Shown here: positions 11,716-64,000 of the stretch, one piece after another
Position numbering within the stretch: the first letter of the stretch is position 1
Layout of the letters: the number at the start of each line of letters is the position of its first letter
NCBI GenBank assembly: GCA_030704615.1
Contig: CM060734.1
Coordinates: 54,250,001-54,314,000 of the forward strand
Direction: 5' to 3'
DNA from: Takakia lepidozioides
Taxonomy: Eukaryota > Plantae > Bryophyta
Length of the DNA stretch: 64,000 nucleotides
The notes under the pieces: model-generated
Database searches by the model: none
The model's input: the letters and a program-made list of their open reading frames with translations, nothing else
What the model was told of the DNA's origin: nothing
Position numbers and translations under genes: made by a program

Positions 11716-11754
11716 TACGAAATTCCTAAATAGCGGATCCAAATTTCAGAGTTT

Positions 11755-12670: not shown

Positions 12671-12860
12671 CCAGTGTTGGACTGGTAAATAGGGTCCGGC
12701 CGGGTATCAGCCAGGGTATTGAATAACCGACCCGGCTGGTATCGGCAATTCCAATACTATGGTTGATAACCGGACCGGCTGGTATTGCCAAGGCAATACC
12801 CAGGTGCATACCAGTGTTGGTCTGGTATCTGGGTTTCGCCAGGTATCAACCGGGGTCTCT
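12671..12860. repeat. Internally repetitive segment (CCAGTGTTGG x2, CCGGCTGGTAT x2), possibly a DNA-transposon end
   Basis: Direct sub-repeats are visible. CAGTGTT resembles hAT termini, but no partner TIR was found. Confidence 0.35.
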
Positions 12861-13611
12861 CCTAACCTAACCTACTGTTCCCGCAAAACATTTGTAGTCC
12901 CCTACTAGTACCCTACCAGAAGGTTCTCGAGTTCCCCGGCGGCCCCCCAAATCCTACCAGGCGGCGGTTCGGGTTCTCCTTTCCCCAGCCCCTACCAGAG
13001 CTCGACTCATCGCTGCAGGTTTGTTCAGGTATCATATTAATATGCACATATGTATAGACATTATGGATGCAGGGTTTCATGTGTTTATGAGCGCCTCTTT
13101 ATGATCTTCATTTTGCGAGACACTATGGATGCAATTCTGATTCAGTGTATAATTGTATGGGGGTTGGTATCCTATGAGATGATCAAGTTTCCCTTGTGGT
13201 TTTCTTGATTATTCAAATGGCCATTTGAATATGGCCAAGGCAAGCTCCTTAAGGTTGCTGATGATTGAATCCTCAGGGATCGGCCCGGAGAAAGAACGAC
13301 CGCGAGAGCCCAATGGATTTGTGGTGATCAAGTAAGTAGGTGCCTTTCTTAACACCCTCCAGAGTGCAAGCAGCAACTTCATCTGGCTGATCCAATTTGG
13401 AATGGTCGAAATGGTTGATGTCGCGACCTGTCTTGGTGGGAAGTTCAACTGCAAAGGAACCCACTTAGCATGCACCATGAGGATAGAGGTCCGCCTCTTG
13501 TAGCATAAAAGGGCTCAGGCAGTTAGTGCATCAATGACTGCCTTTTCACCTTTACTCTCTGCCCACAACCGCCTTTACTAAGCACTTTCTTTTCACAGTC
13601 TGTTGCTGCTT

Positions 13612-16600: not shown

Positions 16601-16776
16601 TGTCCAGCCTTTGATAGTGTCCTCACATCCCAACAAGTGCTAGAAGTGTTCTTGTTGAGCCCCTCTCTTGGTCCTTTTGCAAAAGCAGCGTTCATGGTGG
16701 AGGTGCCTGATCCAGACAACTGTGCCTGGATTAACTCTGACATCCTGCATGACTCAAAATTATTAGTTACAAACAT
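13612..16776 (-). CDS. PLS-DYW pentatricopeptide repeat protein (organellar C-to-U editing factor), 1054 aa, intronless
   Basis: Long PLS array, E1/E2, and an intact DYW domain with HHSEKLA, CGDCH and terminal CSCGDYW. Confidence 0.96.
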   Translation of the reverse strand: MFVTNNFESCRMSELIQAQLSGSGTSTMNAAFAKGPREGLNKNTSSTCWDVRTLSKAGHLKMALQILSQGSDSAQSNTYVCLLQECIKRKSLVEGKKVHAHMILSGFKPDIFLLNTLVNMYAKCGSVGDSRQVFDKMPERDLFSWTMMMAGYAKHGYGVEAFEIYQQMIREGVMPDTVTFICILKACASVGSLEKGRKVHADIIKAGVPPDKILETALAAMYAKCGSMQDARQVFDKMPQRDVVSWNAMITGYAQHGDGGEAFEMYEQMIWEGVRPDKVTFICVLSACASLAALEKGKVIHADIIKAGIVQDIILETALVVMYAKCGSMKNAHHVFNNIAQHDVVSWSAMIVGYAQHGCGREAFEMYKQMIREAVRPDKVTFICILNACANLAALEKGKVVHADIIKAGITSDVILETALLNMYAKCGTLKNARQVFDNMAQRNVFSWSAMIAGYAQHGFAREALGVYEQMIRERVIPDKITFICVLKACAGLADLEKGKEVHAHLMKAGIVQDVIVETALVHMYAKCGNMKDACQVFDNMAQLDVVSWSALITGFSQHGYGREALEIYEQMRQEGVTPDNVTFIAVLNACASLAALKKGKEVHAYITKTGIASCINLQNTLVHMYAKCGSIKDALKVFENMPQRSVVSWSTMIAGYAQNGCGREALEMYKRMTQEGVMANKVTFVCVLNACASLAALERGKEAHSDIIKAGIVSDIILETALIHMYAKCGSIKDARKVFDHMAKRNVVSWTVMIAGYAQHGCGREALQQFEQMLQEGLKPNSVTFICILSACSHVGLVDEGCHYFDSISHDHGLSPMVEHFGCMVDLLGRSGQLDEAENFINKMPIEPVGLVWGALLGACRIHGDVELGERVAKCLLKLDRQDVQTYVLLSNIYAAAGRWDDTAKVRKLMKDTGVIKVRGSSFIEIGNRVHTFAVKDKLHPQIEEIHAELKRLSVQMKEVGYMPDTRFVLHDVKDEMKEFSLCHHSEKLAIAFGLISTPDGTPLRVIKNLRVCGDCHTATKFISKIAGRAIVVRDSNRFHHFQDGVCSCGDYW

Positions 16777-17125
16777 TGATGCTCACATTGACTGAACATG
16801 TTACCTAGCTCTGAGAGGTCAGAGATCTCATGAAAGAGATGCACTCATGGCATGTCAGAGAACTATGTAAGATGTGCAGTAAGGCAACTAACAAGTGAGA
16901 CAAGTGAGACAGACAAAGATATAAGATGGAATATAAAAAAGCACCAACTTCACATGCCAGAACTAGGGATAAAAATGATGAGTACAAGTCTGACTACATG
17001 GAGGGTCCACTTAGCTACAACAAAGGGGGTCGCCTGGGCACGCCTGCAGCCTACTTCACAGATACAAACCTGGATAATTATGTCTAGGGAGAGAATGTAT
17101 AAGACGTTGTTTGCCGTAGCCTTGT

Positions 17126-17330
17126 GGCCATAGACCCCATGCCCAGTTTGGGCGGAACAAGAGGGAACAGACACTTTGTGAGGGGCTCACTCTGGTAGTG
17201 GGACTTACCTTGATATAAACACTTATGTCAGGCTTTCCAGATACCCTCTAAAGCCCTTCACACAAGCATCAATCTGCTGTGTGTAATCACCCCAGCAGTT
17301 AGACCCCAACAAGGCCAGGGCTTTAGGCTC
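17126..17330 (+). repeat. Dispersed ~200 bp repeat, copy 1
   Basis: GGCCATAGACCCC...GGGAACAGACACT...GGGGCTCACTCT..GTAGTGGGACTT...CAGTTAGACCCCAACA..CAGGGCTTTAGGCT recurs at 34741-34938. Confidence 0.8.
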
Positions 17331-17989
17331 AGTTGGTGAACAGAGGCACAGGGACTATGTGCTCTATGGTCCTGAAAAGGGTTGCTGTCCTGATGCGAAT
17401 ACCCCAGACAATGTCAGAAAATGGATATTGTCTGCAGCCCCCCCCCCCCCCTCCACAATTCGGGCATTGACAATCTCCCTTTCTGCTCTACATCTTTTTT
17501 TTGTTCAAAGCTAGACTCCCCCCTCTGAGTTAAAAAAAAAACAAAACAAAAGCCCATTCTCTCCCTCCTCTGACATATGAAGCCGACCTCCTGAGCAAAT
17601 TTTCCTTATATGGAGGACACACGCAACCAACACTGACCTTGGCACATTTAGAGGAATGTCAGTTCCGTTGACATAAGCATCCAGAACCAGAACCACGTAA
17701 GATAAATCTGGTTTCCTTCCTTGACATGGTCCCCGGTACTCTCGACACGCCAAATCTCCACCCAACCTGGTCTTCATCTCTGTATCGAAGACACTGCAGA
17801 AATCTCTATATCACTTCCAAGGACAACGGAAGTTACACATCGTGTACAAAGGAACATGAATTTCTCCCACCTGTGCCATGACCCATGAAGTCAACCTTCC
17901 TCTCTCTCACCTTTCCAAATCGAGTACACGTAACAGGACGACTGGTATTCCATCTTTCTGTCTCTTTATCCTTCTTTGATAAGGAAGAG

Positions 17990-20076
17990 ATGACTGACCA
18001 CCTTGGCACTTCCATTTCAGAAACACTCGCGCATAGATTTGACTTGCAAGATCCAGCAGTCGTGTACTTGGGTGCGAGTGTTGTCCCCTATCCGGTAGTG
18101 CGGGACTTGTGGATCGAGCTCACTCCTGTCTATGGCGTACCCTTCCACCGAGTTAGGCAGCTCAGTCATTCTTGAGAGTCCCAAGGCGCGAGAAAAGGTT
18201 ATTCCACTTTACCTTATGAAACAAGGAGTTATGGCATGTCTGTTGAATCTTTGACATGCACTGTCGAAGAGGAATGGCAAAGGTTTGGGTGGTAGACAAG
18301 ACATACGTCTGGTACATCTATATATGCATTTGTGAGCATATGAGATGTTAACGGAAGCCAGTGCTATGAAAATGCTGCGCGCCCTGTCGGTGAGTTGGTT
18401 TAGGATCTGCTAAGCGTAGTGTACAACAGAAGGAACCACGAATTGATTCCGGGAACTTTTGACCAATATGTTGTTCGGTGAAATGGAAGAGCGAGGAGCT
18501 GAAAGCGCGCCTCTCTAAGCTGCAAGACTTAGCTGACCAAAAGGTCTACAATGAACTCGTGAGGGATGTCACACGACACAGCCGTGATAAAGATCCAGTC
18601 TACTTCTCTTCATACAGGGACCAATTTGGCTTCGGTGAGCCCACATTTGATGCCCGCCATTTGAGTGTCGCAGGCCGTTGGGCGCCAGTTTAGTTGAAGT
18701 GGCATGGTTTGAGCTCTGAATGAGCATACACTGAGATTGTCCCAACGGATTTTGGGGCTATAATCAGCTGGGTCAATGGTCACAGACCTGGGTATCGGTG
18801 TTATTGCTAGAAAATTTCCCTTGGCCTCTTTTTCTTGCTCTCTTGTCAACTCCAGGCATGGGGTCTATGCTTATAAATGATGGAACACACAGATGTCAAG
18901 CATGCTTGTGGGTGTGTGAGAGGCATGTACTCATGGACCATTTGGACGGACTAATTCTATGAGGTACCTTCAGGACGTAATTCCTGTGGAGAACTAACCC
19001 CCCCAAGTGCCGGCCTGTGTTCAAAACCCACTTAAGGGTTTATGAAATACAACCCAAAAATTCATACTGCTCATAGGAAGTTAGCAAGTGATAATGGAAG
19101 GGATAGTATAGACGCAGTTTGTCAGAATGGTTGTGACCCTAGCAGATGTATTGATCCAAGAAGTCAGCCAAGAAGCCTGGCAGTTTAGAAAAGAGGTGTG
19201 CAGTGACAATATGCTAATGCTGTTGAAGAGAGTTTCCCATTTAGAGGAAGAGTCAATTGCAGTACATTAGAAACGTTCATCATCCTCAATAGACAAAAGA
19301 CAGAGACACAGAGAGACAGGCTGTTGTCGGATGCAGATTGTCTTCTCAACATCGCCTACTACAGTGAGGGTGGGGCAACATGGTGCACTGGACACACCCT
19401 TGACCACCTCTTCAACATAAAAACGTCCAAATCACTGTGCTTTCCTTGTGATTCTGTCCTTTGGATTATTACATATGCAGCCTTTCACCTTCAAGAGGCT
19501 TTCCTGTCAACTGATTAAGAGGTTGGTTGTTGATCATCTTTGCAGGGTTACATGTAATGTTGATTATGTTTACGGCCTATATTTTTGGATATACCGTTTT
19601 TCGATCACAATTTAAGGACAATCCTGCTCTGGTATGTCTCATCATTTTCCCTCTAATTTCAAATGGGTGAAGACCATTGATTTATGGCTGTGATCTTTCT
19701 GAATCAGTCCTATTAATTCTCAACCCAAAAGAGGAGGTCGGTTTTGAGACATGGATGCTTCAAGTAAGAGTCACTACAAGAAACATTGGCATGATTGTCA
19801 CTTCACCTGTTTTGAAGACATTTCCCCAGATGTTTAGCTTGGATTTTCTAGGTTTTCGTCTTAGCTCTGTCTGTTGCAGCTGTATTGGTAATTGCTTTGT
19901 GAATTACTAATTTATTAATGGATGATGGAAATGCAGCATGCAGCTGGGGGAGTAATTGGTCTCTTGCTGGCATGTTTGCGGAGATTGTACTTTTTATTGT
20001 ACGGGCGTCTCTTGCCGAGGAAACCTCAAAGAACTCCCCATCTAAGGTGAAAACAAGGACGGGGCGTGTGTTGTAG
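17990..20076 (+). pseudogene. VMA12: V-ATPase assembly factor VMA12/TMEM199-like gene with two apparent frameshifts; exons ~17990-18197, 18490-18634, 19546-19631, 19937-20076
   Basis: The spliced peptide SPKAREK|SEELKARLSKLQDLADQKVYNELVRDVT...FSSYRDQFGF|GLHVMLIMFTAYIFGY..NPAL|HAAGGVIGL..GMFAEIVLFIVRAS matches plant Vma12 homologs. GT-AG introns are in phase. Frame breaks near 18153 and 19963; the start codon is uncertain. Confidence 0.75.
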
Positions 20077-42057: not shown

Positions 42058-43518
42058 CTACATATCTGAAACAGACCAGAGATATGCCTCCAGCTCCATT
42101 GCTTGCTTTTCATTCTTCGACTTAAACATTTCCTTCTCAAACCCTGTACTTCGATCTACCCCATCCCAATGCCGACCAGGCTTGATACCATAACGATTAG
42201 CGGGAGCTCCCCCACCTCTTTTTAACCAGCTGTGATTGGGTATGTCCTGTGGCACGATAAATCCCGACTCTTTCATTTCCTCCCTTGATCCCAAGTCTTC
42301 CAGAACAGGAACGGAGCTCTTCTGCTTGACGAGATGAGCCATAGGATCCCCCCAGCGCAGCCGATCCTTGAGAGATTGATCTAGCTCGGGATCATCTCTG
42401 GACCGTGCAAAGGGTTTACTTTTCTCCTCCTCAAACTCAGCCCGCCTTGCTTCAGCTTCTCGCTTTTGTGCCAAGCCTTTTCCCCACTCTAGTGGCTTTT
42501 CTTTAGGTTTAGCATCACCCTGCTGTTGCCGTAGCAACTCTTCTAACCCTTCCAGCCTCCTACCTCGTTTGTCACGATAAACGGTCTCTGCACCTCGGCC
42601 ACTTAGTGAAGGATCCATGTCTTTAATTCTCTTGGCATCGAGTTGTTTCTTGCGGGCAAGCTCTTCCAGATGCCCCTTGTCAGATGTAAGGCCTGCACGA
42701 GTGCCATCCGTCATCGTCTCTCTTTTCCGCATCCCATCCCTCTTGTCATGCTTTCTATCAGCAGAAAGAAGATCTGGTTCCTCCCTGGAAACCGAAGCAG
42801 AGGATTTCCTCCTGGGCGGTGACAAATCGGGAGGAGCAGACTGTGATTGCTCTTCTGCTTGTATCCTACTGCCGCCGCTTCGTGCAGCAAGAGGAGGTCT
42901 TGGAGGCTTCCTTCGGCGCGGGGAGAGATCGACTTCACGAACCTTAACGGAAGAGCGCCTCACTGGCGGAGACAAATCTTCTGAATCTCTTTCAGAAAAG
43001 GCCCTCCTTCTAGGAAAGGATAAATCAGAACTCTTAGCTATTTTCCGTGGGGGAGACAGATCCGGACTTCTGGAAGACCTCCTTCGAGGAGGAGACGAAT
43101 CAGGGGTCCGACCTCTCCTTCGGGGTGGAGAATAATCAGGACTCTTGGCCCTCCTTCGAGGAGGGGACAAATCCGAAGGCCCAGGCTCGGTAGCGTCTCC
43201 ACTGACTGCAACCCAGCCACTCCCGTCATTTGCAACCGACATGTAGGGGCGGTGTTGCTTTGCTGCCTCCATCTTGTGCATCCGCTTCACCTCCACATCC
43301 TCTATCACCTGCGGCCCTTCTCCCTCCTCATCCTTCTCATGGTCCGATTCCTCTACCACTTGTTTCTGCCATGTTGCATCATCATCCACGATGATCACAC
43401 CTGCCGCCGAAGTAATCTGGGAGCCTTTCCTCTTCTTGCTCTTAAGCTTGCCGCGCTTGCTCTCCTCAGCGCTGCTACTGCTATAACGCTTCAGGTAGCT
43501 CTGCATTGCCGACGCCAT
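42058..43518 (-). CDS. BUD13: BUD13 homolog (RES complex splicing factor), 486 aa, intronless
   Basis: DLSPPR repeats, SGRGAETVYRD, EWGKGLAQ, RWGDPMAHLV, NRYGIKPGRHWDGVDRSTGFE, and terminal YLWSVSDM. Confidence 0.95.
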   Translation of the reverse strand: MASAMQSYLKRYSSSSAEESKRGKLKSKKRKGSQITSAAGVIIVDDDATWQKQVVEESDHEKDEEGEGPQVIEDVEVKRMHKMEAAKQHRPYMSVANDGSGWVAVSGDATEPGPSDLSPPRRRAKSPDYSPPRRRGRTPDSSPPRRRSSRSPDLSPPRKIAKSSDLSFPRRRAFSERDSEDLSPPVRRSSVKVREVDLSPRRRKPPRPPLAARSGGSRIQAEEQSQSAPPDLSPPRRKSSASVSREEPDLLSADRKHDKRDGMRKRETMTDGTRAGLTSDKGHLEELARKKQLDAKRIKDMDPSLSGRGAETVYRDKRGRRLEGLEELLRQQQGDAKPKEKPLEWGKGLAQKREAEARRAEFEEEKSKPFARSRDDPELDQSLKDRLRWGDPMAHLVKQKSSVPVLEDLGSREEMKESGFIVPQDIPNHSWLKRGGGAPANRYGIKPGRHWDGVDRSTGFEKEMFKSKNEKQAMELEAYLWSVSDM

Positions 43519-43977
43519 ATCTACAAGCTCGAATTCCTTGCTGCTTTCTCACACTAGGTGGCCGTCACAAGATGCGTGCGAGATGGCCGCCATAGCGCAG
43601 GCTGTGGACCAAGGCAAGCTGTGCCAGCAGACCCTCCATGGAAGCTCGCTTCCTCAATTGATGGGAACCTGGGAACGCTATGGTAATCACGGGTCTTTAT
43701 ATCAGTCTTATGTTTACTAATATGTATTGTTTTCTTTTTCTTTTTCTTTTTCTTCTTCTTCTTCTTTTTTCTTTAAAAGTACTTTTAGAGAACAGGGGCC
43801 GGCACAGAGGCCCTGGATATTATTATTGATTTATTTGGAATTATTACCCCGGGGGGGGGGGGGTGCCAGAAGCTGAGAGAAAACTCCAGCTGAAGCCTGT
43901 GTAAGAGCCACTTCACCTTGTGGCTACTGTCCTCTATCGGGGGTAGGCTCTATATTGGGGAGTATATAATCTGTAGG

Positions 43978-44251: not shown

Positions 44252-46891
44252 TCACCAGTAATCCCCACAGGAACAAACCCCAAATTGGAAGTGATGAAAG
44301 CGATTGGCATCCCGTACAATAAGAGCTCGCCCAACAATCTTAGAGATGAACTTGGCGGCCGTGTGGCAGTCACCACACACCCGAAGGTTTTTGATGATGC
44401 GGATAGGTGTGCCAGGGGGCGTGCTGATGAGCCCAAAAGCAATGGCCAGCTTCTCACTGTGGTGGCAAAGAGAAGATTCCTTCCGCTCCTCCTCCACATC
44501 ATGCAACACAAAGCGTGTGTCAGGCACATACCCAGCCTCCTTCATCCGCCCAAACAATCTCTTCAGTTCAGCATGGATTTCCTCCATTTGTGGATGCAAT
44601 TTATCTTCGACAACAAATGAATGCACAAGGTTGTTGACCTCAATGGTGCTGCAGCCTGGCTCCTTTCTGACACCCTTGTCCTTCATTAATTTTCTCACCT
44701 TTGCTTTATCATCCCACCTGCCAGCTGCAGCGTATATGTTTGATAGTACTACATAAGCTGGAGCGTGCCATGGATCCCTCTTGAGAACACCTTTTGCTGC
44801 ACGTTCCGCTGCTTCAACATCACCATGAATTCCAGTGGCACTAAGCAAGGCCCCCCATACCGGACTATCCGCTTCAACTGGCATCTTCTTGATGAAGGCC
44901 TGTGCCTCATCCAATTGTCCTGCACGGCCAAGAAGATCTACCATGCACCCAAAATGCTCCACTGTAGGAGTGACACCATGATCTTGACCCATAGTATTGA
45001 AGTAGTGACGGCCTTCATCTACTAGGCCAACATGGCGACAGGCAGAGAGAAGGGATGTGAAGGTGACACCATCTGGTTTCAAGCCTTCCATTAGCATTTG
45101 TTCAAACAGTCGCAGTGCCTCCCTACCACACCCATGCTGAGCATATCCTGTCATCATTGCATTCCACGATACCAGATCTTGCTTAGCCATTTTGTCAAAC
45201 ACTTCACGAGCATCCTTTAGTTCCCCACATTTGGCATACATGTCAACAATGCTATTTCCTAAAATGATATCTGGCACTATTCCACTTTTGCTGATGTCAG
45301 TGTGGACCTGCTTGCCCTTTTCCAGGGCTCCTAGGCTGGCACACGCATTGAGAATGCAAGTGTATGTGACACTGTCGGGCACTATCCCCTCCTGTTGCAT
45401 TTGCTCATAAATAGTCAGGGCCTCCCTACCACACCCATGCTGAACATATCCTGTGATCATGGCATTCCATGAGACCACGTCTCGCTTATCCATGTTATCA
45501 AACACTTGCCGTGCATCCTGTACACTCCCACATTTGGCATACATGTCGACAAGGGCAGTCTTCAAATTAGTGGATGATGCAACTCCAGCTCTGATGATCG
45601 CAGCATGGACCTCTTTGCCTTTTTCCAGAGCTCCTATGCTGCAGAACGCATTGAGAATGCAAATGTACGTTACACATTCAGGTATCACCCCTTCCCGTTG
45701 CATTTGCTCATAGACATTCAAAGCCTCCCTGCCATCCCCATGGTGAGCATATCCTCCGATCATGGCATTCCAAGAGATCACATCTCGCTTAGCCATATTG
45801 TCAAACACGAGACGTGCATCCTCCATGCTCCCGCACTTGGCATACATGTCTACCAGGGTATTTTCCAAATTAATATATGATGTGATTCCAGCTTTGATGA
45901 TCTTAGCATGGATCTCCCTGCCCTTTTCCAGGGCTCCTAGGCTGGCACATGCATTGAGGATGCAAACGAACGTGACCCTGCTGGGTGTCACCCCATCCTG
46001 TTGCATTTGTTCATAGATCTTGAAAGCCTCCCTCCCATACCCATGCTGAGCATATCCTGCGATCATGGCGTTCCATGAGACCACATCTCGTTGAGTCATT
46101 TTGTCAAACACTTGACGTGCCTCCTTCATGCTCCCACATTTGGCATACATGTCAGCAAGGGCAGTCTCTAAATTGACATTGGAGCCAATTCCAGTTTTGA
46201 CAATGTCAGCATGGACTTCTTTCCCCTTCTCCAGGGCTCCTAGGCTGGCACATGCATTGAGAACACAAATGTACGTAACCCTGCTTGGCATCACCCCTTT
46301 CAGTTGCATTTGACCATAGAGCTTCAAAGCCTCTCTACCACAGCCCTGCCTGGTATACCCTCCTATCATCATAGTCCACGTAAAGACCGTTCTTTCTGGC
46401 ATTTTGTCAAACAACTGGCGGGCATCTGCCACTCTCCCGCACTTGGTATACATGTTGATTAGTGTGTTCAGTAGAAAAATGTTGGGCTTGAATCCACTTT
46501 GGATGATGTGGGCGTGCACCTGCTTTCCATTGGCCAGGTGTTTCACGTTCATGCACTCCTGCAGGATATAAATATACGTATGGGAGTCTGCCTGAAAGCC
46601 TGGTTGGTTCAACATGTGCAGCGCCTCCCTCAGTTGGCCTGCCTTACATAGTGTCCGCACATCCCCACAAGTGCCAAAACAGTTCTTATTGACTTCTTCT
46701 TTCTGTTCAAAAGCAGTGGTAATTGTGTAGGTGCAACCCTTGCCACCAGCCTGATTTCCAACCAGCAACTGTGACCAGTTCAACCCTGCCATTCTGCATG
46801 GGTCAAAACTATCAGTAATACACGAATAACACTTGAACTCACAAATACATATCTCAAGGCTCCTAGACAGTTGAAAGAAACGCCTCCTCAT
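44252..46891 (-). CDS. PLS-DYW pentatricopeptide repeat protein (organellar C-to-U editing factor), 879 aa, intronless
   Basis: PLS array, E1/E2, PG box [22 protein letters not shown] and CSCGDYW. Confidence 0.96.
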
Positions 46892-49800
46892 CAGGGGAAA
46901 CTCTTCCTACATATCACATAGAGATGCAGAACTACCAGTAGACCAACTCCCCAACAACAGGGCCAATTGGGCACAGTGCATTACAATGCCAACAAGAGCT
47001 AGAAACATTGTTGTAAATGACGGAAAGGTGTGACAGGGAAGTAACACACCTGAATCCTTGCTGACTTCCACTCTAGAAATTTTTGCTCTCTTAGTGGGTC
47101 CACCTTCATCTGCCAATGGTACAGTCCCACAAGAGAGTAGAGAAGAAGACAAACGAGAACCCACCCAAAAGCTGGAATTTGCGAAATCGTTTTATAGAAT
47201 TGAAGCAGTCAAGGAGAGACTGTCTGAGATTTCCACTGTGGAGAAGTCGAAGACGGTGGAAAACGAGGGATGAGGAATTTGAGCTGTAATGCAAAAAGCA
47301 AAACCCTGAGAACTGGAAAGGGAAAGAAATGGTTGAGGAACGTCCTATGAAGAAGAACTAAAAGGAAAGGATTGTAGGGACGGAGTTGGATGCTCTAAGA
47401 TTGACAGATAAGAGCTCCATAAGTGTGCACCACCACCCTGACTTCGACATCTCAAGTACATATTACTTCAGTGGCTGGAGAGAATTGGGCCGCAAGAAAT
47501 CCCCTTCATGGTGAGCAGCAAATCTCTTCCGACGGAGGGAGTTGTGTTGAGGTGACATATGTAAGAGGCTCTCCATAATTGCGTACAACCGTCACTCCTC
47601 GGCAGGTTCAACCATGGAGTACGTGGAAGTGTAAATTTTTGAGAGGATTGACGACTGTGCGAATATTGAAATTGGAACTCCGATGGATTTGGAACTTGGA
47701 GATTCTTTCTCCGAGCACTGAATGTCGTGCTATGTTTCATCCTTGCCCTTTTCCCGTACTTATGCTGTCACAGACTGTGCTTCTCAGATGCTCAATTGAT
47801 GCCTGCTCTGGTGCATTCAAACCAGCTTCTATGAATCGCAGAGAAAATGTGCCATTGTGCTCCAAACTGAAGGTCACTATCCTTGATGCTAGATCTCAGC
47901 ATTCATACGCAATAGACATGGAAGAGATTGAGCATCATCAGGTACTTAAGCAACTCATGCCTACAGACCATTTGAAACAGCAAATGTGAGATACTAAAAA
48001 CTAGAACTTACTGGGCTACAAGACTTGGGGGATTCATTTACTCAAGCAACCACACAATGGTTGATCATTTTGCTCTTTTGCGCAAAAGAGCAAAAAATAG
48101 GGTTCAAAGATTTTCTCGAATCATACTTCGAAGAGTTCGAGGAGTGGAATCCTATTATCGTCTCGCCCTTCCCATGGGCAGTGTCTACAAAACGGATGTG
48201 CGATTGCACGTATCGCCTTGTGCGGCAGGTCTCACTTGGTGCACCTATCAGTAAGTATGAATATTCTGCTACAACCTGTACAGAACAATGCGATGCCATG
48301 AGTACAGCGAAATCAAGCAACCGCTTTGAGCATTGCTGCCTGTTCGTATTGGTTTTCACCATTGCCTTACCCACAGCTTCTAAACACTGCATGTCTGAAA
48401 GCTATGTGATCTTTCAGGCCCATATGTTTGACGGGTCCGATTTGAGCGGGGAGATGGCCCATATGTTTGTACCTAGAGGCGGGAAGATGTAGCAGGAAGC
48501 CAAAGGGAGAGGCTGCCCTAAACCCTAAACCCCTCACAAGGGCTGCCAATGCGGAAACAAGTACAAAGCTTTCTTCTCTTCATAATTCAGTTGGAGATTT
48601 TCGTCGCCTGCATCACTGAGGGCAGTTATTAGCTTTGATTTGAGCGCTTTGCCTCTTGTATTCGGTAGAAGAGGAGGGTCAAAAGAATGGCCGAATCCCA
48701 GAGAAGTGCTGGAGTCCTGGAGCATCGAACTGGATGAAAAAGTGAACCTACACAGATTTGGGTATTCAGGTACGGGCCTGCGATTGCACGCTCGGTGATG
48801 ACAGTGTGGAGGATGGTGGAGTGTCGACACATCTACACTTTTGACCATGGATTCTCCTTCTGGACACCACTCCTCAGCATGTATGTCTGTACTGGACTGT
48901 GCTTCGCAGCAATTCTCAGCATCTTATTACACGAAGAATTGGGTTCTCGTCTCAGTTGTCGAACTAGTATCGGAGCAGTTGATTTTGTGGAGAACACAGC
49001 CGGCTTAATTGCGCAGTCTTCAGTTGTTCAGCCATGTGAGGCTTGTCGATGCAAGAGCAGTCTTCTTCTGCATAGACAACTACATGAAGTTTTTCTGGGT
49101 GTGCAGAGGATCGGAATTGTGCATTCTCTGCTTTTGCGCCCCTGATTTGAACTTAAGGACTCCCGTTTCCTCCACCTAATTGGTTTGCACCAATTTTTCA
49201 GCTTTCACATGCCTTGGCTCAGACAATGTGTGGCTTGAATTGGCCGGTTGAATATCATGTTGAGCTGCTAAGGTGCTCTCACAAATTCGCGTGAGGCTCC
49301 ACCGGTCTCCGTCTATCCTGCAAATCAAACGAAGATTTCGGACATCTCCTGGACGCTGTATAGTCAGCTGCAGATTTGATTTACAAAGCTAGACCGACCA
49401 CGTATAGGGCAACCATGTATATATAGAAACGAAGCTAGATCCCCAGGAATATATTCAGTTTCGGACCAGCGCTACATTTACTTCTAGAAAACAGACAGGT
49501 GCTCTAATACTTCAGAGATCCTGACCAGTTTCCAAGTGTGCATCGCTATATTGCGAATGCGCTGGTCGAAGACAGAGTGTGTTCAAGTGACCAGTCAGTT
49601 ATGTGTTTTGTTTCGCTGACATAATTTGCTTCAAATTGTGGTCACTTTAGGAACACCTAAGAAACACAAGATGAGGTAGTCCTTGTTTGGGCTGACAGCA
49701 GATTAGAGTTGACCTACTTCGTTCCTTCAGGAGCACAAACTCGATGATAGGAAAATCGCTTCTCTAAGTAGTTCTATGTGGCCATTCATTCAGTCTAAAT

Positions 49801-54864: not shown

Positions 54865-55474
54865 TGTCATGCGCATACATATCGCTACACAACTACATCG
54901 CTGTCCAAACCACACCACACATATATGCCCAATAAAGTAGTCTGCCACAATGCGCATACATATCGCTACACAACTACATCGCTGTCCAAACCACACCACA
55001 CATATATGCCCAATAAAGTAGTCTGCCACAATGATAAACAAGCTAAAAAGGACACACACTCCCAACACAAGAAATATAAAATCCATCGCTATCACTCATT
55101 GAAACAGAAGTCGAGCCAGGGGCACCCCAAGCTATGGGGACTCCACCCCACAACAACCTGTACCCCTACATAAGCACACTCAAACCTAAACACATGCAGG
55201 AGCTCGGTCGCACAGGCTCAACTCGAGAGAGATGAGCCGCGCGACTGCCGCTCTCGTGAAGATAAGACGGACCAGGTGTCAAACTAAACTTGACACCTGA
55301 TTTAACACTTGACCTAAATCCAAGTATTGAATACAAATAACTAGTTTTATTCTAGCTGTTTTCACACTATGCTTATTTAACTTGACAGCTGTCGTGCGCA
55401 TATATATCGCTACACAACTACATCGTTGTCCAAACCACACCACACATATATGCCCAATAAAGTAGTCTGCCACA
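54865..55474 (-). repeat. Putative 3' LTR (TG...CA) containing three copies of an ~80-85 bp unit (54865-54948, ~54950-55029, 55390-55474)
   Basis: On the minus strand the PPT AGGGGGGCGAT directly precedes TGTGGCAGAC at 55474. The unit GCGCATA.ATATCGCTACACAACTACATCG.TGTCCAAACCACACCACACATATATGCCCAATAAAGTAGTCTGCCACA occurs three times. Confidence 0.7.
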
Positions 55475-55734
55475 ATCGCCCCCCTAGCTGGTGGATAGGT
55501 CCCTCTACCTCCAGATAGCTACAAGATGTAATAGCCACAGCCGTACTAAGTCCTCTATCACTGTCCCTATTATACTCAAACTCTATAGACCAAGGGGCCG
55601 GGTACAAGAGTAGCCCCATCGTTAGTCGCCGTCTTGCAATGTGTGAACTTGAGCCAGGATCTCGTGTGTTCAAGGTCTCCTAGTAGTTGGGCCTTACGTT
55701 GCTTGTTAGCCTTCCATGGTTGTATCCACTCCCA

Positions 55735-55836
55735 CTATCCAATGCAATGTGGACATAACCAATCCCCATCTGGAACCATCTCAAGAGGTGGAGTCAAGCA
55801 TCCCATATGCCAACCTCTAGAGCATCGATCGCACAG
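55735..55836 (-). pseudogene. PHD finger (C-terminal part) at the end of the retrotransposon polyprotein
   Basis: Manual translation LCDRCSRGWHMGCLTPPLEMVPDGDWLCPHCIG* gives the CxxC-x4-H-xxC...WxCPxC PHD signature; the first CxxC is missing. Confidence 0.88.
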
Positions 55837-56480
55837 AAGGAGGCAAGTGATGCTTGCTTGCTGAACCTGTAGCCCATGGCTAACCAGGGTAACTGAAGGT
55901 CCCAATCTCCTAGGTATCCCTTCTGCAAGCCATACTTGCGCAAACCCCTCTTTACTGTCTGAACAACTCTCTCTGCCAAGCCATCGGCCTCGGGATGATC
56001 CCGAGAAGTGGTACGGTGGTCTATCAAGGCCTTGTCACACAAAGCCTGAAACTCCCCCAAGAACTCTCTCCCTTGGTCCGTGAGTACCTCAGCTGGAGCA
56101 CCGAATCGGCTAAGCACACAATCCAGGAATGCATACGCAGCTCCCTCACTAGCCTTATCAGGCAATGGAACCAATTCAATCCACTTGGAGAAGTGCTCCA
56201 CCATCACCAACACGTACTTGTTGTGGCGCATGGTCAGTGGCAACGGCCCTGCGAAGTCAAGACTCCACCTGTAGCCCAATCCCATGATCGGAAGAGGGTG
56301 CAATTGTGGAGTAGGGGCGTTGAATAAAGCACGCACCGTGTCACACACCATGCACCTAGCCACAAATGTTGCACCTCTGTGTGCATACCACGCCACCAAT
56401 ACTGCCCCTGCAGTAGACTATGAGTGCGTCGCACCCCAAAATGCCCCAACTCCTCATGGGCATGCCGCACTAACCGTGCC
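55837..56480 (-). pseudogene. Integrase (HHCC + DDE core), frameshifted at ~56368, C-terminus deleted
   Basis: HAHEELGH...CMVC; SLDFAG, LTDQGREF and GLAERVVQT. Confidence 0.92.
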
Positions 56481-56859
56481 CGTTGTGTTGGGTGAGGCAC
56501 AATCCTCACTCGACCATCCTCCCACATTCGGAGCAGGTGTGTCCCCTCCCACCTGAACCTCTTGGCTCGTTGTAGGATCCGATCCCTCTCCTTGGCAGTC
56601 ACACTGGCTGCCGTGTCTCCAGTGCGGAGGTAGTCCAACACAACTGAATCCTCATGTATATCCTTGGCGCCACCTTGCTCATTGCTGGCCTCAGGGTCCT
56701 CAGACACTTGATCTACAGTCATCCCTGTTGCAGGTCCAACCTGGCCTTCCGCTGCCAAGATACACAGAAATGCAGATGCATGCCATCCGGGCACCATCTC
56801 CTCGTCCGTCTCACCATGCCACCGAGCTCCAGTGTCATCATGTTGGCTCGTGCATGGAT

Positions 56860-58200
56860 TGCGACTCAAGCCATCTGCATTGCAATTGACCAAACCCGGT
56901 CGATGCACCACCTGAAAGTCATACTCTTGAAGGATGAGTGCCCACCATGCAAGCTTCCCCGTCAGCTTGTCTGACTCCATCAACCACTTGAGTGGTTGGT
57001 GATCCGTGACAAGGGTGAAGAGATTGCCGTATAGATAGCACCTGAAGTGTGCCACGGCCCACACTGCAGCTAAGCATTCTCCCTCATATGAGCTATACTT
57101 AGACTCTGCAACATTGTTCGAGCGGCTAGCATAAGCCACTACGAACTCGCTTCCCTCATCATCCACCTGTGTGAGCACCGCTCCAAGCCCCAGCATGCTC
57201 CAATCTGTATGCAGCTGAAAAGGACGCCCCCTGATAGGTCGTCTCAAGATGGGCGCCGAGGTCAACCTCGCCTTGAGCTCTTGAAAAGTTTGTTCTTGCT
57301 CATCTTCCCACTGCCACTCCTGGTCCACCTTGGTCAGCTTGGTTAGAGCCTTTGCAATGGCACTAAATCCCTTAACAAACCGTCTGTAATAGTTTGCTAA
57401 CCCCATGAAAGCTCGAATTCGGCTCACATCCGTGGGGCGTGGAACCTGTGCAATGGATTCTACCTTAGTCTGTTGTACCCCCAATCCTCCAGGATATATC
57501 ATGTGACCCAGATACTCAATCTGGTTGTGGAAAAACTTGCGCTTTCCCGGATGTAACTTCAATCCGTGCGTCCTCAAGCGCTCAAATACCCCCTGAAGGT
57601 GTCTCTCATGCTCCTCCACCGTAGCACTAAAGATGATGATGTCATCTATGTAGCACCGAGCAAACTCCACCCCTGCTAGAATCCTGTCCATGACTCTTTG
57701 AAACTCAGCGGGAGCGTTTTTAAGCCCAAATGGTAAGAACCGCCACTGGTATAGGCAATCCTTCCCGTGCTCATTGATCCCCCAGAATGCCGTCTTTTGC
57801 TTATCCGCCTCCTTGATCGGCAACTGGTGATATCCAGATCGTAAATCCAACGTGCTAAAGACCTTGGAATGCCCAATGGCATCAAAGATCTCCTCTGGTG
57901 TTGGCATGGCATACCTATCGGACTTGGTCTGACGATTTACAGGCCGGTAATCACCGCACATACGTCTCTCCGTCTAATTGCCATAGACATCCTTCTTGGC
58001 TGGCATCACTGTGGCTGAAGCATACTCTCCACCAGAGAGCTCCACCAAACCTGCCTCCCAGAGATCTTGAGTCCTCATCTGAATCAAAGACCTCTCCATG
58101 TCACTATATCTATAGGGTCTCCGAAAGATTGGCGTGTCAGTGGCCAACTCAATACGGATCTCTTGACCCTTCAGTGCTCCCAAGTCCTTCAAACTGAAGG
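56860..58200 (-). pseudogene. Reverse transcriptase + RNase H
   Basis: CGDYR, LDLRSGYHQ, LPFGLKNAP, YIDD (57652-57641), LHTDWS, EGECLA and TDHQPL; TAG at 57974-57976. Confidence 0.95.
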
Positions 58201-58644
58201 CAAAGCATTTCCTGTAAGCCCTCAGGAACCGCCGTATACGTCGTCTCTCTCCTCCGGTGACAATGGGTCCAATGTCAGGCTCCCAATTGTCCTCCGTAAC
58301 TGCAATCTTAAGTCCAGTGGGCTTAGGGGTAGAGGACGCGTCCCGTGGTTGCTATGCTGCAACCTCTTGAGCAGTACTTCCTTCCTGCTCAGTCAGTGAC
58401 AAGGCCTCATCCTGCCCCATCATCTCACCATTGAGAACCTCCTCATCCCGGGAAGAATCCCCAACCTCATCCATCACAGCTGCTTTGGCTGCCAACTCCC
58501 TCTGAACCTCGAGCACCTCCCACGTGTGCCATGGATGTCTACACCCAATGGTCCTCACCGGCTCGCCCCCACTCGCTGCCTGTACCGTCTCGGTAGGCAG
58601 AGAGACCGTCAAGGGAAGTGCACTCCGCACTCTTCGTTGCTCAG

Positions 58645-59600
58645 CTCATAGCCAAGCTGATAATCCAGGTCAAGCAATTGAGATCCATTGCTTGCCCCAA
58701 CACCTGACGACGTGATGCCTCAGAAAGAGAAGGCACCGCCGTGGTCGCAGTGGAAAACCCCATAGCCCGCTCTCGCTCGTCGGCATTAGGCTCCACTAAC
58801 TGCTGCAACTGAGCATCCCACAGAAGGCCAGGTCCACCATCCCGAAAAGCATGGGATCATGGGAAGCTGAGCAGTGTAGGTAATGCTGCTCGTGGTTGAC
58901 CCACCCTGTTGACCACTGCCAAAGGCAAACGGTCATCGTGTCTCACACGTTGAGACTGCCTCCCTGTGTCCAAAATGCCATCCACGGTGAGGTGCGCTGA
59001 CCGCTGCACCCCATCAAATGCACGCTTGAGCAGTGCGGGTGGCATCAAGTTAGTCCACCATAGCCGTGGACGATGAGCTCGTGATCCCACTGCAGCTGCA
59101 TCCAGCAGCACTGCTAACCCAAGCCATGACCGGACTTGATGCACAATGGCCATCACCCTGGCCCGAGAATCGCCCATCAGTGGCACATTCTCCAAGATGT
59201 ATGCTGGCGATACAGCTTGATGAAGCTGCAAGTGGCGCAAAATCCGCACCATCTCCCAAAACAGACTCGTCCTCGAGTCTCGCAATCCGTTGCCATGCCC
59301 GGCTGATGAATGCCCTTGGCAGGGCCAACCTGCCACTACCAGATCAATGGAGCCAACCTGCTCCAAATCCGGCGCCCCCAGCAACGAAATGTCTGCTGGC
59401 AAGGCTTGTTGGTATCCACGAACTGCAGACACTGGCAACAAAGCAGGGTACTGTTGTACCAACTGAGCAACATGGCGCAGTGAGACGCGTCGTGCAGTCT
59501 CATCCCTCTCCACATACAGGTAACGCCTTACCCGCACACCTGCCTGTAGCACAGCAGCCAATCCAGTGCTGATCCCGCCAAACAAGTCCAGAAGGCAAAT
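58645..59600 (-). pseudogene. DNA (cytosine-5)-methyltransferase domain, DNMT3-like, embedded in pol between protease and RT
   Basis: Motif I LLDLFGGISTG, II YVE, III DI, IV DLVVAGWPCQG, VI YILENV and VIII AHRPRLWWTNL. Past the TGA at 58857-58859 the same frame gives IX ERERAMGF and X SRRQVLGQAM. Confidence 0.92.
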
Positions 59601-60039
59601 GCCTTTATCCGGATACTGCCACACAATAGGTGTGGTATCCAATGGTGACAACTGAGGTGGTCCTGGTGCAATACCCGCACTCTCCTCCTCTCCTGATGGT
59701 ACAAAAGCCTCTACCCAGGCTTGTTGCACCCGTCGATCAGCAACCTGCTGCAAATCCTTGCTCGTACCCCACAATGGAGTGTGAGTAACCATGGCAGGCA
59801 ACTCCACCATACCATGCATATCATCCTGCTCTGCTGGAGGTGGCACATCCTCTGCATGGGCATTGCCTTCCAGCAACTCTCCAGGCCAACTCACTGCAGC
59901 TGTAAAGATGGCTAGTGTTGGCATCTTGCCCCGCTGGGCAGCCGCAATACCCCCAATGAATGTCACAGGGAGTTGTGCACAACGACCATCCCCTGACTGC
60001 CATCCAGGCCTGTAGAATGCTGACTCATCCCAAAAATCC

Positions 60040-62555
60040 AGGGTGAAGCCCATGGGGTATAACACTGCCCCACCAACGAGGACATCATAAGAGACCGCGT
60101 CTGTTACAATGGCCTTGGCTCGCATTACTGAGCCATCGATAGGATGATCCGGCTGCAGTCTAATGGCCAACTGATGCCGTGTCATGCCCCGAGCCTGCTC
60201 TGATCCTCCCAGAGATGTCTATATCTGGAAAGGACAAGGCTCCATATCCGCCTCGATAAGGCCCAAACCTGCAATAGCAGCTCTGCCCAACATCAGTGGC
60301 TGAGCTCCCGAGTCCAACAAGACCCGCAGTGGCCGGTACTTCTTGCCTGCCGGTCCACTCAAAGAGAAAATGTCATCCTGGTTGTCTAACAAGACAACTC
60401 CAGGTGTCACCATGGCGCGCTCAAAGGCTGGCCTAGCTGGCAGCTCCGTCAACTTGGCAGCTGCAGCTTGCCAGGGCGCAGCCGTGGCAGTCTTGACCCT
60501 CAAATCCGAGGATCCCTCTGCCACTACACCTTCCACTAACTCCGCAGAAGATGAAGTGACCTCCCCACTCTCACAGAGTGTTGCTGCTAGTCTGAACACT
60601 GCAGCTGGCCTTACCCCCGGCGTCGCAATCATGGTTGCCGAGAACAATGGGGCTTGACACACAGAGGTGGCTGCCCCCAATAACACACCGGCTGCACTAG
60701 CCTTGGTAGCAGGTGTCAGTGCTGCACATGTAGCTCTCCCCAATGGCATAGTAACCTCCGCCTCGGTAACAGTCGGGCGAGAACTAGGTGCCATGGATGG
60801 CGTCGACACAGTCTCCGCCAATGTGAATGACTGAGGAAGCCTCGCCTGACGGCTTGCCTCCCCACGCTGTGGATCCAATTCCACCTCTGCACCTCGTGGC
60901 TCAGGAACTCGTGCTGCTCCTCGAGTCACTGCTGCAGCAGACTCCACCTGCTCTAGTGGTAGTGTTGCTCCGCACATGAATCCCATGCCTCCCATATCTC
61001 CTCCCTCAGGAGCAGGAGGTGGACCATCCCGCCTGGGAGCCGGTACCGCCTGAGCTATAGTCATGGTAGCGAGCCTCTGCTCTAGCTGCTGAAGCCGATT
61101 GGCCATGCCTTGGTCAACACCCTGACCTCCGCATCCTTGGCCATGTGGAGCTTGCCCTTGGCCTGCACCTCGTGCCCGACCACCTTGTCCTCTTTGGGCT
61201 GGTCCACCTCGCCCCCGGCCACCATTATTCCCTTGGAACTGGCCTGGGCGCAACTCAGGATGCAAGTCATAACACTGGGCATCTCCATGCCCATACTTGC
61301 CGCAATGCCCACACTGCAACTGTGCAGGCTGTGCTTGTGCCGGCCTTTTGCCACTCTCTGGGCAATCTCTCTTGACATGGGGTCCTCCACATGTCCAACA
61401 TATCACCCCTGGTTGCTGTTGGCCTGCAAAAGATGCCACGGGCCTCTGCACTTGAGGTCCCATGTAAGCTCCATGGAACTGGGGCTGGGCAACCTTGCCC
61501 CCCTGACCATGTTGTTGGGTAGTCCCTTGTGCCTGTGGGCTCACAGCTGTGCCCCGTGCAGGCATGTCCTTGCCAAATCCAATTGTAACAACTCGCTCCT
61601 CCACCATGTTGAGCTCAATCCGCTCAGCCAGCAGAAACACATATGCTAATGTGGGTTGGGCTGCTTGTAACAGGGTTGCATCTCGCACCCTTCTCTTGAG
61701 CTCCTTGTCCAGAATTCCATACCAAAACTGGATTGCCTGAGCTTCAGTAACCCCTTGGGTTACACTTATCAAGCGCCTCATACGAGTGTACGCCTCTCGC
61801 AGGCTCTCACTGGGTTTGCGCTGGAAGTCTTGCAAACTTCGCAGCTTCTCTGTCCGTACACCTTGGTAGTTCCTCCGTAACTCCTAGAAGAACTCCACCA
61901 CCGGGTTGAATCTAGGCACATGTGTTGTAGTCGTGGCAGGAGGAGTAGTAGCACCTTTTGAACTGGTACCACCTACAGAAGTACCAGCACTACTTGCTCC
62001 ACTACTAGTGCTGGCAGTGGGAGCTATTGGTACTGATGCAGCTACTGGTCGCGTCGTGCCTCGAGTAATGGAGACGTAGTCAGGTGACCAATACATCCTC
62101 CACTCCTCAATCTCTGCTTCATGTCCTCGCCTGAACTCGTGGTAATCGTCCATAGGCGGGCCTTCCAAATGCTGGAACAGTCCCTTCCACGCCATGAATG
62201 GGGTGAATAGCTGTGGATTGCGCATCTGCTGCAAATCACACCAGCTGTCGAACTCCTGGATAAAGTCATCCAACTCGATTGTGCCCACAGCTCCAGAGTA
62301 CCTACGAGGCCCCTTGGTAGCTCCATACATCTCCTCCATGTCGTCCCACAACAATGGCGAATGAAAGTGCACACTTGTTGATGAAGCCTCCGAGTCTGTG
62401 TCTGACTCTACAGTAGTTGAGGGTGGCGGTGAAGGTGGTCTGAACCGAATACCTCGTCTTGTGAACCCACTCTCACTGGTACTGCTTGTAGCCGTACTCC
62501 CCTCAAAACCCTTGGGTAACTCCGTAATGACACTCACAATGTGCACCTCCTCCAC
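60040..62555 (-). pseudogene. Gag (two zinc knuckles) and aspartic protease
   Basis: FQRKPSESLREAYTRM, CWTCGGPHVKRDC and CGHCGKYGHGDAQC; protease VLLDSGAQ...YDVLVGGAVL. One reading frame continues through TAG stops at 61884 and 60219. Confidence 0.9.
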
Positions 62556-64000
62556 GTGACACTATAAGGCTCTAGTACTAATCTAATAGTGACACGGGTG
62601 GGCACCTGTTGCAGTCTAAGGGTCATATCCCAATGGCTCAGGGCACGTGCTTTGAGACGGTTGCGGGTGTCCTCATTGCAAATGACTGCATCTCCTTCAC
62701 GCACAACAAACATGTCATTGCTGATGACTCCCATATGCAATCAATTCGTCCAACTGTTCTCCACTCAAATCAGTCTGAGTTCCTTGGGAAACATAAATCC
62801 TGTCCCCTTGTGTGCACAGGCTAAGAGAAGAGACCTGCCCTTCAATTACGTCATCATTTCCCCCAGCCATGCAAGGAGTACATCCACAGATTTATGTCTC
62901 ATGTAGACCACAACAGATTCTGGACACAGAATTGTGGATCTTTCATAGCACACTCACACTCTAAAAATTCCACAGATTTTTAGCAGAGTCCCCAAAACAA
63001 AAACCAGGTGTAGATATGTAGATTTCCCCTTTCTGCAGCTATCCACCCAAAAACTGAGTCAAACGGAGTCCATTTGACAAAGTTATGACCAACCAGGCTC
63101 TAAATCATTTAAATTATATCAGAGTTTTTTTTTTTTTTTTTAACACCAAAACGTTCCCGCCATTAAGAACCGTTCCCAGGTTTCATTTGTGGTTACAGGT
63201 GCACCACAGACTTGCTCGCTTAGTGAGCTGCTTTGCTCCAGCGACGACTCTCGAGCTCGGGTGTATGGCTATGGCGATGGTGATGGCCTGTGCAGCGTCA
63301 GGCATCTGTTTCCCGTAATGCAAGCACTCGAGCCATCCCTAATGCAGGGACAAGCCCTGATGATACTCTGTCAGAACCTGGTGGGCAGCTGCCATCTGCA
63401 CTTGCTCTCTCTTCAGACAATCTTCGGACCTAGTGTCAAATGTGGAAGTGGTGAAGGAGCTTATTGACAAAGGCAACTGTGTTGGACTATCCACAGAGTA
63501 GAGAGTAACCAGATCAGCTTCGTCATTTAGTTGAAGCTTGGAGCATAGGTCTGCATACTCCGATAGGGCAAGGCACTATCTCAATTCAGGTAGCGATCAA
63601 TTTCAATGTAGAAGCATACCCGCTAGCGGTATACTGATCCACCACAACATCCCCGTTGGACTTGTCTGCAATGTTCCCTGCAGCTTTGCAAGCTCGTGTA
63701 CCGAGTGTCTGGCCAAGTTGGGCAGCAACAGCATTCAGACTGGCCACAAACTTCAAGGTTGGATAACCACTCACTCCATATCTCGGTCACAGGTCTCCTC
63801 TGTCTTTGAGCTATGTTGGGTGGACTTGCTGGAGGGAAAGGTTGCTGGTCATTCCAACTGACACCAAGCATTTCAGTTCAGCCTTCTACCCGGCCGGCGC
63901 TACCACTGCCGTTGCTGTCCTACCAGCCAATGTCCCCGACCCCGTGCTTGCGACCCTACGCCACCACGCTACCTCCCTGCAGCTCCAACACATGGTTAGA

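Follow-up and report, generated by a model that had tools for sequence, protein, structure and literature searches.

The 64,000-nucleotide stretch of Takakia lepidozioides DNA analyzed here (the window) carries a decayed Ty3/Gypsy retrotransposon of the order gag-PR-DNMT / RT-RH-IN-PHD with split terminal repeats (54865–62561, minus strand), in which a DNMT3-like cytosine methyltransferase (MTase) lies between the protease (PR) and the reverse transcriptase (RT). Judged by sequence, its family is a land-plant relative of KnitGypsy-Dnmt3 of the alga Klebsormidium nitens, and a variant in which the MTase lies outside the RT open reading frame (ORF), upstream of a conserved in-frame stop codon. 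Under our best explanation, to which we assign a probability of roughly one half, the MTase is packaged at capsid level by way of this leaky stop and methylates new cDNA in cis before integration. Gypsy-borne DNMT3 was already known from an alga; the conserved stop with its proposed readthrough, the anatomy of the terminal repeats, the self-priming site, and a sister clade with the MTase between RNase H and integrase are new.

Anatomy and decay of the window element

All parts of the element are on the minus strand. Gag (61242–62339; PF03732 match below cut-off, E 0.027) is accompanied by two CCHC-like knuckles (61400–61362 and 61313–61272) and is 61 per cent identical to the N-terminus of Marchantia Mp4g09160. 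The aspartic protease (59991–60419) has LLDSGA at 60320–60303, with DSG at 60314, and the corresponding region of the relative L059 matches Asp_protease_2 (E 2e-4). Beyond the MTase follow RT (57500–58249; YIDD at 57652; RVT_1, E 6e-31), RNase H (RH, 56900–57298; PF17917, E 4e-34), the zinc finger and core of the integrase (IN, 55851–56638; PF17921 and PF00665, H2C2 and rve) and the C-terminal part of a PHD finger (55735–55863; PF00628, E 2.1e-9), whose N-terminal part has gone with a deletion. A polypurine tract (PPT, 55476–55489), found in the same place in relatives, precedes the terminal repeats: B1 (55390–55475), whose terminal GACA is the right-end motif; a two-base spacer with A2 (55032–55389), whose initial TGTCA is the left-end motif and which matches the 5′ A repeat of complete relatives; and B2 (55031–54951) with an extra tandem B (54950–54865), together spanning 54865–55031, 97.6 and 96.6 per cent identical to B1 and closing the element with TGACA. 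The 5′ limit is uncertain, as repeated DNA extends to about 63126.

As the initial annotation had proposed, the domain between PR and RT (58671–59630) is a DNMT3-like C5-MTase with motifs I–X in canonical order. The HMMER check that it had suggested gives a PF00145 match of 50.3 bits against a cut-off of 22 (E 3.1e-13), and every motif that it had named is in place (LFGG at 59585, ERDE at 59510, WPCQ at 59327, ENV at 59192, AHRPRLWWTNL at 59078, ERERAMGF at 58778, and RRQVLG at 58712). Motifs I, IV, VI, VIII, IX, and X, together with the fold, place it among C5 methyltransferases. Ranked against the sequences of solved structures, the window domain is closest to DNMT3A (41 bits) and DNMT3B (34), ahead of DRM (27) and HhaI (24), and a profile of 67 family sequences returns the same order (101, 91, 61, and 42 bits, respectively). 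The MTase domain of the stop-free relative L022 is predicted to fold with a pLDDT of 95; with that model, all 31 Foldseek matches listed are DNMT3 (TM 0.72), the VIA Z-score is 28.0 for DNMT3B versus 24.5 and 22.6 for bacterial MTases, and the superposition on DNMT3B is collinear over residues 7–320 (rmsd 2.5 Å over 263 residues). By its closest solved sequences and structures (DNMT3A/B/C), the predicted enzyme is thus of DNMT3 type, in agreement with the earlier reading of its motif texture. Identity with plant DRM enzymes was considered and rejected: the domain lacks their circular permutation (VI–X before I–V) and is collinear with DNMT3, and the DRM2 match is confined to query residues 9–134, at the C-terminal part of the DRM2 chain.

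The window copy is dead, with four premature stops, two frame breaks, and deletions. Three of the stops interrupt the Gag-PR-DNMT frame, in Gag (61886–61884), PR (60221–60219), and the MTase (58859–58857), and one lies in the RT frame (57976–57974), which has in addition a separate, family-conserved stop at 58354. Because the stop at 58859 lies inside the MTase, before motifs IX–X, this copy is unable to give a whole enzyme; the view that its catalytic motifs are intact holds for WPCQ, ENV, and RxR but not for the truncated enzyme. The frame breaks lie near 58646 (58640–58650) and, in the integrase, near 56400. A shared frame for Gag, PR, and MTase and one break before RT had been noted from the sequence; the frame and the break are both there, but in six sequencing-run comparisons the break is absent from other copies that cover the site, so it is private to the window copy, and the conserved stop at 58354 also precedes RT. 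A deletion at 55835 has removed about 516 bases present in other copies (runs X9 and X7). The 5′ repeat A1 is missing, and a search of the 5′ region found neither an A1 repeat nor a self-primer complement of at least 10 bases. Upstream of gag, repeated DNA occupies 62650–63141; other copies diverge at the junction at 62650, and the poly-A/T run at 63127–63141 may end another insertion that displaced A1.

The order PR-RT-RH-IN, a DDE integrase (rve), TG..CA ends, target site duplications (TSDs) within the 4–6 bp range in relatives, a PPT, and a primer site make the element an atypical member of Ty3/Gypsy, with split repeats as in KnitGypsy-Dnmt3. Two other assignments were rejected. A DIRS or other tyrosine-recombinase element would carry a recombinase, and there is none among the Pfam matches of the two L059 frames, whereas rve and TSDs are present. 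A chromovirus such as Tcn1 or Chlamyvir would carry a chromodomain, of which there is no match in ORF2 of L059 or in 14 long relatives; a PHD finger is found instead. That finger is intact in L059, and its nearest counterparts are those of CHD4, PHF12, PHF21A, ATXR5, KAT6A, and KDM5. Most of these fingers read unmethylated H3K4, and animal DNMT3 reads the same mark through its ADD domain.

A family of bryophyte elements with algal relatives

The element resides in land-plant DNA. A BUD13/CWC26 gene (42058–43548, minus strand), with best named matches in Sphagnum and Marchantia, groups inside bryophytes (support 93) and weakly as sister to the sampled mosses (57) in a tree of 25 sequences chosen from 120 listed rows; no named hornwort is among the 25. 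The window also holds a cluster of intronless PLS-class PPR genes (7455–10010, 13612–16782, 44252–46906, and about 2970–3950), two of them with DYW deaminase domains; their very many relatives in host sequencing runs point to an RNA-editing-rich bryophyte.

In run X1, whose BUD13 match shows no differences, the element is present as well, at a summed contig depth of 0.6–1.2 million versus 62–64 at BUD13, a measure that does not amount to copy number; the MTase bin, at about 1.1 million, is similar to the RT bin. In run X3, the depth is 4,650–18,100 over the element versus 4–11 in the neighboring 63161–63800, and 32,040 of the 39,795 aligned contigs are at least 95 per cent alike. The family is therefore very large and young in this host, with the MTase as a standard part.

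A one-off insertion, an assembly chimera, or algal contamination could have produced a single copy as decayed as this one. Such an artifact has a negligible probability in our estimate, given that named proteins of liverworts and mosses share the domain order, as do 51 of 80 metagenome loci, that in host runs the MTase bins reach the depth of the RT bins, that PLS-class PPR-DYW genes and a bryophyte-type BUD13 share the window, and that run X1 contains both the exact BUD13 and the element. The initial annotation had named a one-off insertion and contamination as what would overturn it, and on both counts its reading of a family trait in a land-plant host is borne out.

The longer homologs (n = 47) include 20 from Marchantia, two from Calypogeia, two from Sphagnum, and one from Klebsormidium; in these four genera, the homologs that share the domain order appear in the annotation as hypothetical proteins. 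A Closterium protein has the MTase followed by RT. The full HMMER search returned 142 cluster representatives at E<=1e-30, and the ESM Atlas holds one further Streptophyta PF00145 cluster. Among the best 80 of 207 metagenome loci, many of which represent one insertion recovered in several assemblies, 51 have PR upstream and RT/RH downstream of the MTase, 25 have one side, and four have neither. Four loci (L035, L045, L046, and L066) keep the MTase and have PR or RT-RH-IN deleted, as one-off deletions or non-autonomous derivatives. In IMG/VR, 17 loci have partial MTase matches of 28–50 per cent, none with retroelement domains in order. The best 120 of 1377 RT relatives include no element from a vascular plant, Physcomitrium, or Ceratodon above 41 per cent identity, which is weak evidence of absence.

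The nearest fetched loci are only 70–72 per cent identical to the window element. Run X9, labeled as another species, contains one 5,009-base contig about 94 per cent identical to 55470–59907 of the window, MTase included, with terminal repeats that differ from those of the window; no host gene of the window is matched at 80 per cent in X9. Horizontal transfer, a close relative, or a mixed sample is possible.

The MTase occupies two positions in Gypsy polyproteins (n = 196). It follows PR or precedes RT in 52 and lies between RNase H and integrase in 45; 32 more partly fit the latter order, and 67 are too short to tell. The RH-MTase-IN architecture with a PHD finger corresponds to one RT clade, a large sister clade (support 0.98; e.g. 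P0035, P0036, P0177, and P0180), in which Scenedesmus sp. PABB004 is the only named one of 10 members looked up; no description of a chlorophyte Gypsy-DNMT3 was found in the accessible literature. In an unrooted RT-RH tree, built without outside Gypsy references, the window element falls with Klebsormidium and Closterium on an 86-tip side (0.993) opposite the RH-DNMT-IN clade, and in the MTase tree Klebsormidium does not branch as the closest sister of the bryophytes. The MTase trees comprise retroelement and viral MTases only, and the later one is midpoint-rooted. It appears that the MTase was captured earlier and more widely than in one alga, or that the domain passed from one RT lineage to another. 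Within the MTase tree (P0002–P0038), Marchantia groups with Sphagnum (0.91) and the liverwort Calypogeia falls outside, a pattern of paralogous lineages or transfer. In a further clade from the same metagenome records (L067–L097), 30 of 31 loci have EC where the catalytic PC dipeptide would stand; its split repeats and self-primer are arranged as in the window clade and differ in sequence.

The MTase is under purifying selection: dN/dS is 0.08–0.31 in 7 of 14 pairs, with synonymous sites saturated in five, while two pairs of decayed copies that are close to each other give 0.59 and 0.94. This comparison across copies, which had been called for from the sequence alone, bears out a maintained domain; frame breaks make the RT values for the L022 pairs unreliable. 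Stop-free MTases make up only six of the 56 full-length domains in the loci. The CpG observed/expected ratio of the element (0.50) lies between those of two host genes (0.38 and 0.67) and is uninformative on self-methylation; CpG/CHG depletion likewise provides no discrimination.

KnitGypsy-Dnmt3 (de Mendoza et al. 2018; PMC5890265) resembles the window family in being a Ty3/Gypsy element with an intronless, non-permuted Dnmt3-like domain under purifying selection and with repeats, described as DIRS-like, in the split order A1..B1-A2-B2. The K. nitens protein KFL_009030040 has the order PR-DNMT-RT-RH-IN, with 44 per cent identity in the MTase. According to its authors, the algal MTase lies in the RT ORF, whereas in the window clade it lies in ORF1, before the conserved stop; the EC clade (L071) and P0188 do have the MTase, RT, and RNase H in a single ORF. 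The window family differs further in its land-plant host and very high repeat level, and the accessible text of PMC5890265 makes no mention that we found of PHD fingers, self-priming, TSDs, or joint anatomy. Marchantia is absent from its main text and three supplementary files. On sequence grounds, the phrase 'acquisition in the K. nitens lineage' in the available text of that paper is too narrow. No description of a bryophyte Gypsy-DNMT3 was found in the openly accessible literature, although supplementary DNMT3 trees (PMC12344493, PMC5890265, and bioRxiv 10.64898/2026.05.21.726589) may contain bryophyte sequences. The accessible literature on bryophyte methylation and on Ginger elements does not mention such a family, and the REXdb text, so far as accessible, mentions neither Marchantia, PHD, nor methyltransferase. 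The statement that no characterized land-plant family is known agrees with this literature, in which no description of one was found, but the family is a relative of an algal element and not a separate land-plant invention.

Other retroelements share parts of this combination. SymbioDIRS-Dnmt3 of Symbiodinium, which methylates CG de novo in yeast (PMC5890265), also has a retroelement-borne Dnmt3 and split repeats, but it is a tyrosine-recombinase DIRS element of dinoflagellates, whereas the window family has a DDE integrase and 4-bp TSDs. EpiLTRs of Cymbomonas and Euglena (bioRxiv 10.64898/2026.05.21.726589) are likewise LTR elements with a cytosine MTase and a chromatin reader; their DNMT is sister to DNMT4, is accompanied by DAM and a chromodomain, and is stated to be distinct from 'streptophyte Gypsy-DNMT3'. 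That preprint and Sarre et al. 2025 (PMC12344493) cite streptophyte retro-DNMT3 and, in their accessible text, name no land plant. Some Chlamydomonas Gypsy elements (e.g. Gypsy-7a_cRei) also carry a PHD finger in the polyprotein and have an intergenic insertion bias, but no methyltransferase is among their listed domains and their LTR pair is ordinary (available text of bioRxiv 10.1101/2022.06.16.496473).

The conserved stop and the terminal repeats

Between MTase and RT, the window has an in-frame TAG followed by CAACCA (58346–58354, minus strand), a CAR-YYA context of the tobacco mosaic virus (TMV) type. Such contexts define TMV-type readthrough (PMC2194720), and the TMV signal gives about 10 per cent readthrough in plants (PMC2754532). 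Both the end of the MTase and the start of RT are covered in 58 of 81 sequences. All 34 window-like sequences have an in-frame stop 81–111 bases before RT, and in 33 it is followed by CAR (24 TAG and 9 TAA); L057 is one transition away from such a stop. The CAR-YYA context after UAG is exact in the window and L020 (CAACCA) and in L058 and L059 (CAGTTA), whereas the 29 others have CAR-YYC, with CAACCC in 28 and CAACTC in one. Those 28 of the 33 represent one subfamily, one base off the consensus, and the stop with CAR amounts to only 4–5 independent lineages. Among 773 other in-frame stops taken as a control, CAR follows 33 and CARYYA none. In L059, whose MTase is 50 per cent identical, exactly two frames are open, a Gag-PR-DNMT frame of 1369 aa and an RT-RH-IN-PHD frame of 1047 aa, split by TAG-CAGTTA, and five of six liverwort gene models (Marchantia and Calypogeia) end 86–90 aa past the MTase. 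The description of the MTase as simply inside one Pol polyprotein thus fails for the window clade. The RT-RH-IN-PHD protein is likely made by readthrough of the conserved stop, to judge by context and by analogy with other stop-readthrough systems. MuLV, Tca2, SIRE1, and the TMV signal, as described in the available text of PMC2194720 and PMC2754532, also have an in-frame stop between ORFs in a CAR-YY context. Unlike in the three retroelements, the stop of the window clade comes after PR and an enzyme, which would place the MTase in the abundant product.

A cis-acting MTase could also coexist with an ORF2 produced by splicing or re-initiation, in which case readthrough would not set the stoichiometry. 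Re-initiation has the in-frame ATG between stop and RT in 31 of the 34 sequences in its favor, and CAACCC, the most frequent context, departs from the consensus by one base. Three lineages (the window, L020, and L059) lack the ATG, however, and an in-frame stop with CAR is kept in sequences 50 per cent apart. A contig of run X7 (presumed to be RNA, though it may be DNA) crosses the stop region, from 56554 to 58727, without a skipped part; run X7 yielded no contigs over 58728–59382, to which we give no evidential weight. We consider splicing or re-initiation quite improbable and prefer readthrough. Since the MTase lies upstream of the conserved stop, readthrough would have it made at the level of Gag, in excess over RT. 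Stop and CAR occur together in none of 24 EC-clade sequences, so that Gag-level dosage is not universal.

Complete relatives have the structure TSD-TGTCA[A1]..ORFs..PPT[B1]GACA-NN-TGTCA[A2][B2]GACA-TSD. Five of seven distinct complete relatives have an exact 4-bp TSD (L033, L042, L051, L071, and L084), one has a mismatch, and one has none; the TSD is not readable in the window copy, whose 5′ end is missing. None of the 27 loci with a 5′ A has a B before it, so two ordinary full LTRs are absent. The mirror form A-B-A..B, expected from a symmetric two-repeat circle, is likewise found in none of the 27, which counts against the circular route proposed below. The B1/A2 joint consists of the right end, two bases, and the left end (55390–55387 in the window). 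By comparison, the A2/B2 joint varies from copy to copy (e.g. L033:10837–10859), with extra bases in 7 of 14 rows, and in L042/L043 it contains the start of the primer site and a PPT remnant (L042:13333–13350). Such A2/B2 joints look as would be expected of end-joined cDNA or circle junctions.

After A1, none of seven elements has a TGG tRNA primer site. In five of the seven, the bases after A1 complement a stretch of 14–22 bases inside A, compared with 0 of 150 control positions each; this stretch lies 31 bases past a TATA box, where one matched. A self-priming site probably replaces the tRNA site. According to the available text of PMC4600332 and PMC6317226, Tf1/Sushi and plant Tcn1 chromoviruses also have a primer site complementary to their own 5′ repeat and no tRNA site, but they carry chromodomains, whereas the window family has a PHD finger and split repeats. 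Elsewhere in the window, 4167–4470 (plus strand) is the 5′ end fragment of a related element; its A repeat starts with TGTCA and is 70 per cent like A2, and its primer site is complementary to an internal segment of A in 10 of 12 bases, the two mismatches being of CpG type.

Possible roles of the captured methyltransferase

In the sequence of events that we propose for packaging at capsid level, transcription would start about 30 bases past the TATA box in A, and the RNA would prime itself. By analogy with TMV, about one ribosome in ten would read through the conserved stop; inside the particle, the protease would then release the MTase, which would outnumber RT, and the packaged enzyme would methylate the new cDNA before integration. 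The ends of a linear B-A..B-A cDNA would be joined, and staggered cutting by the integrase at the internal GACA-NN-TGTC joint would give A1..B1-A2-B2. The PHD finger, of the type that reads unmethylated H3K4, would steer insertion to inactive chromatin, where the insert would arrive methylated and either resemble the repeat DNA of the host or reduce its own expression.

The enzyme could instead act in trans in the nucleus, methylating genomic copies of the family or chromatin near insertions and thereby limiting spread or silencing neighbors. Gag-level dosage would exceed the need of one cDNA, de Mendoza et al. bring up rate damping as a possible role (PMC5890265), and the moss host enzyme PpDNMT3b, which like the window MTase has a non-permuted DNMT3-type catalytic domain and comes from a non-flowering plant, performs de novo CG/CHH methylation (PMC6453930). 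Host plant DNMT3 genes of this kind stand alone, whereas the window MTase is inside a retroelement. Against action in trans, a domain in the Gag polyprotein is expected in the particle, as is established in retroelement biology; ORF1 has no targeting domain, the PHD finger being on the integrase; and the K. nitens methylome is not unusual (PMC5890265). We regard action in trans as unlikely.

Methyltransferase activity is putative for Gypsy-borne DNMT3; KnitGypsy-Dnmt3 was inactive in yeast, a result that its authors call inconclusive (PMC5890265). This inactivity, the change from PC to EC in one clade, and the two different positions of the domain in the polyprotein, as for a passenger binding module, would suit a non-canonical role in cDNA or RNA binding or protection, in scaffolding the joined cDNA ends, or in RNA methylation. 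Yet the catalytic Cys and the motif VI Asn are kept in 80 of 80 loci and the second Arg of motif VIII in 77 of 79, a conservation that is partly built in because patterns of motif IV or VIII served to retrieve the loci. The SAM-binding motifs I and X are also kept in the family, and the fold is nearest to DNA MTases, with DNMT2 last in the structure and profile ranking. A non-canonical role seems to us rather improbable, and methylation of the cDNA in cis remains our preferred reading.

De Mendoza et al. left open the use of the captured DNMT3 and, in the text available, showed no activity for the Gypsy form (PMC5890265). Marchantia polymorpha has the family, including annotated ORF1 proteins with all motifs, and as a genetic model it offers methylation mutants, which makes the question testable. 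With the conserved stop, the model becomes one of bulk loading instead of one enzyme for each RT. Together with the TSDs, the split repeats suggest that a retroelement with a DDE integrase integrates here by an unusual route. They also account for the likelihood that such elements are overlooked or misassigned by LTR finders and in PF00145 gene counts of bryophytes. Capture of the MTase would no longer be placed in one alga but at the base of streptophytes or before. A broader reading, which we offer tentatively and consider doubtful, is that a Gypsy superclade of ancient green-lineage origin, extending from chlorophytes to liverworts and mosses, both writes and reads chromatin marks. In its bryophyte branch, a leaky stop would supply DNMT3 at capsid level, a self-primed, methylated cDNA circle would be opened by a DDE integrase at the end-to-end joint, a PHD finger would direct landing in H3K4-unmethylated chromatin, and the elements, at the high copy numbers indicated here, would contribute to de novo methylation of the host genome.
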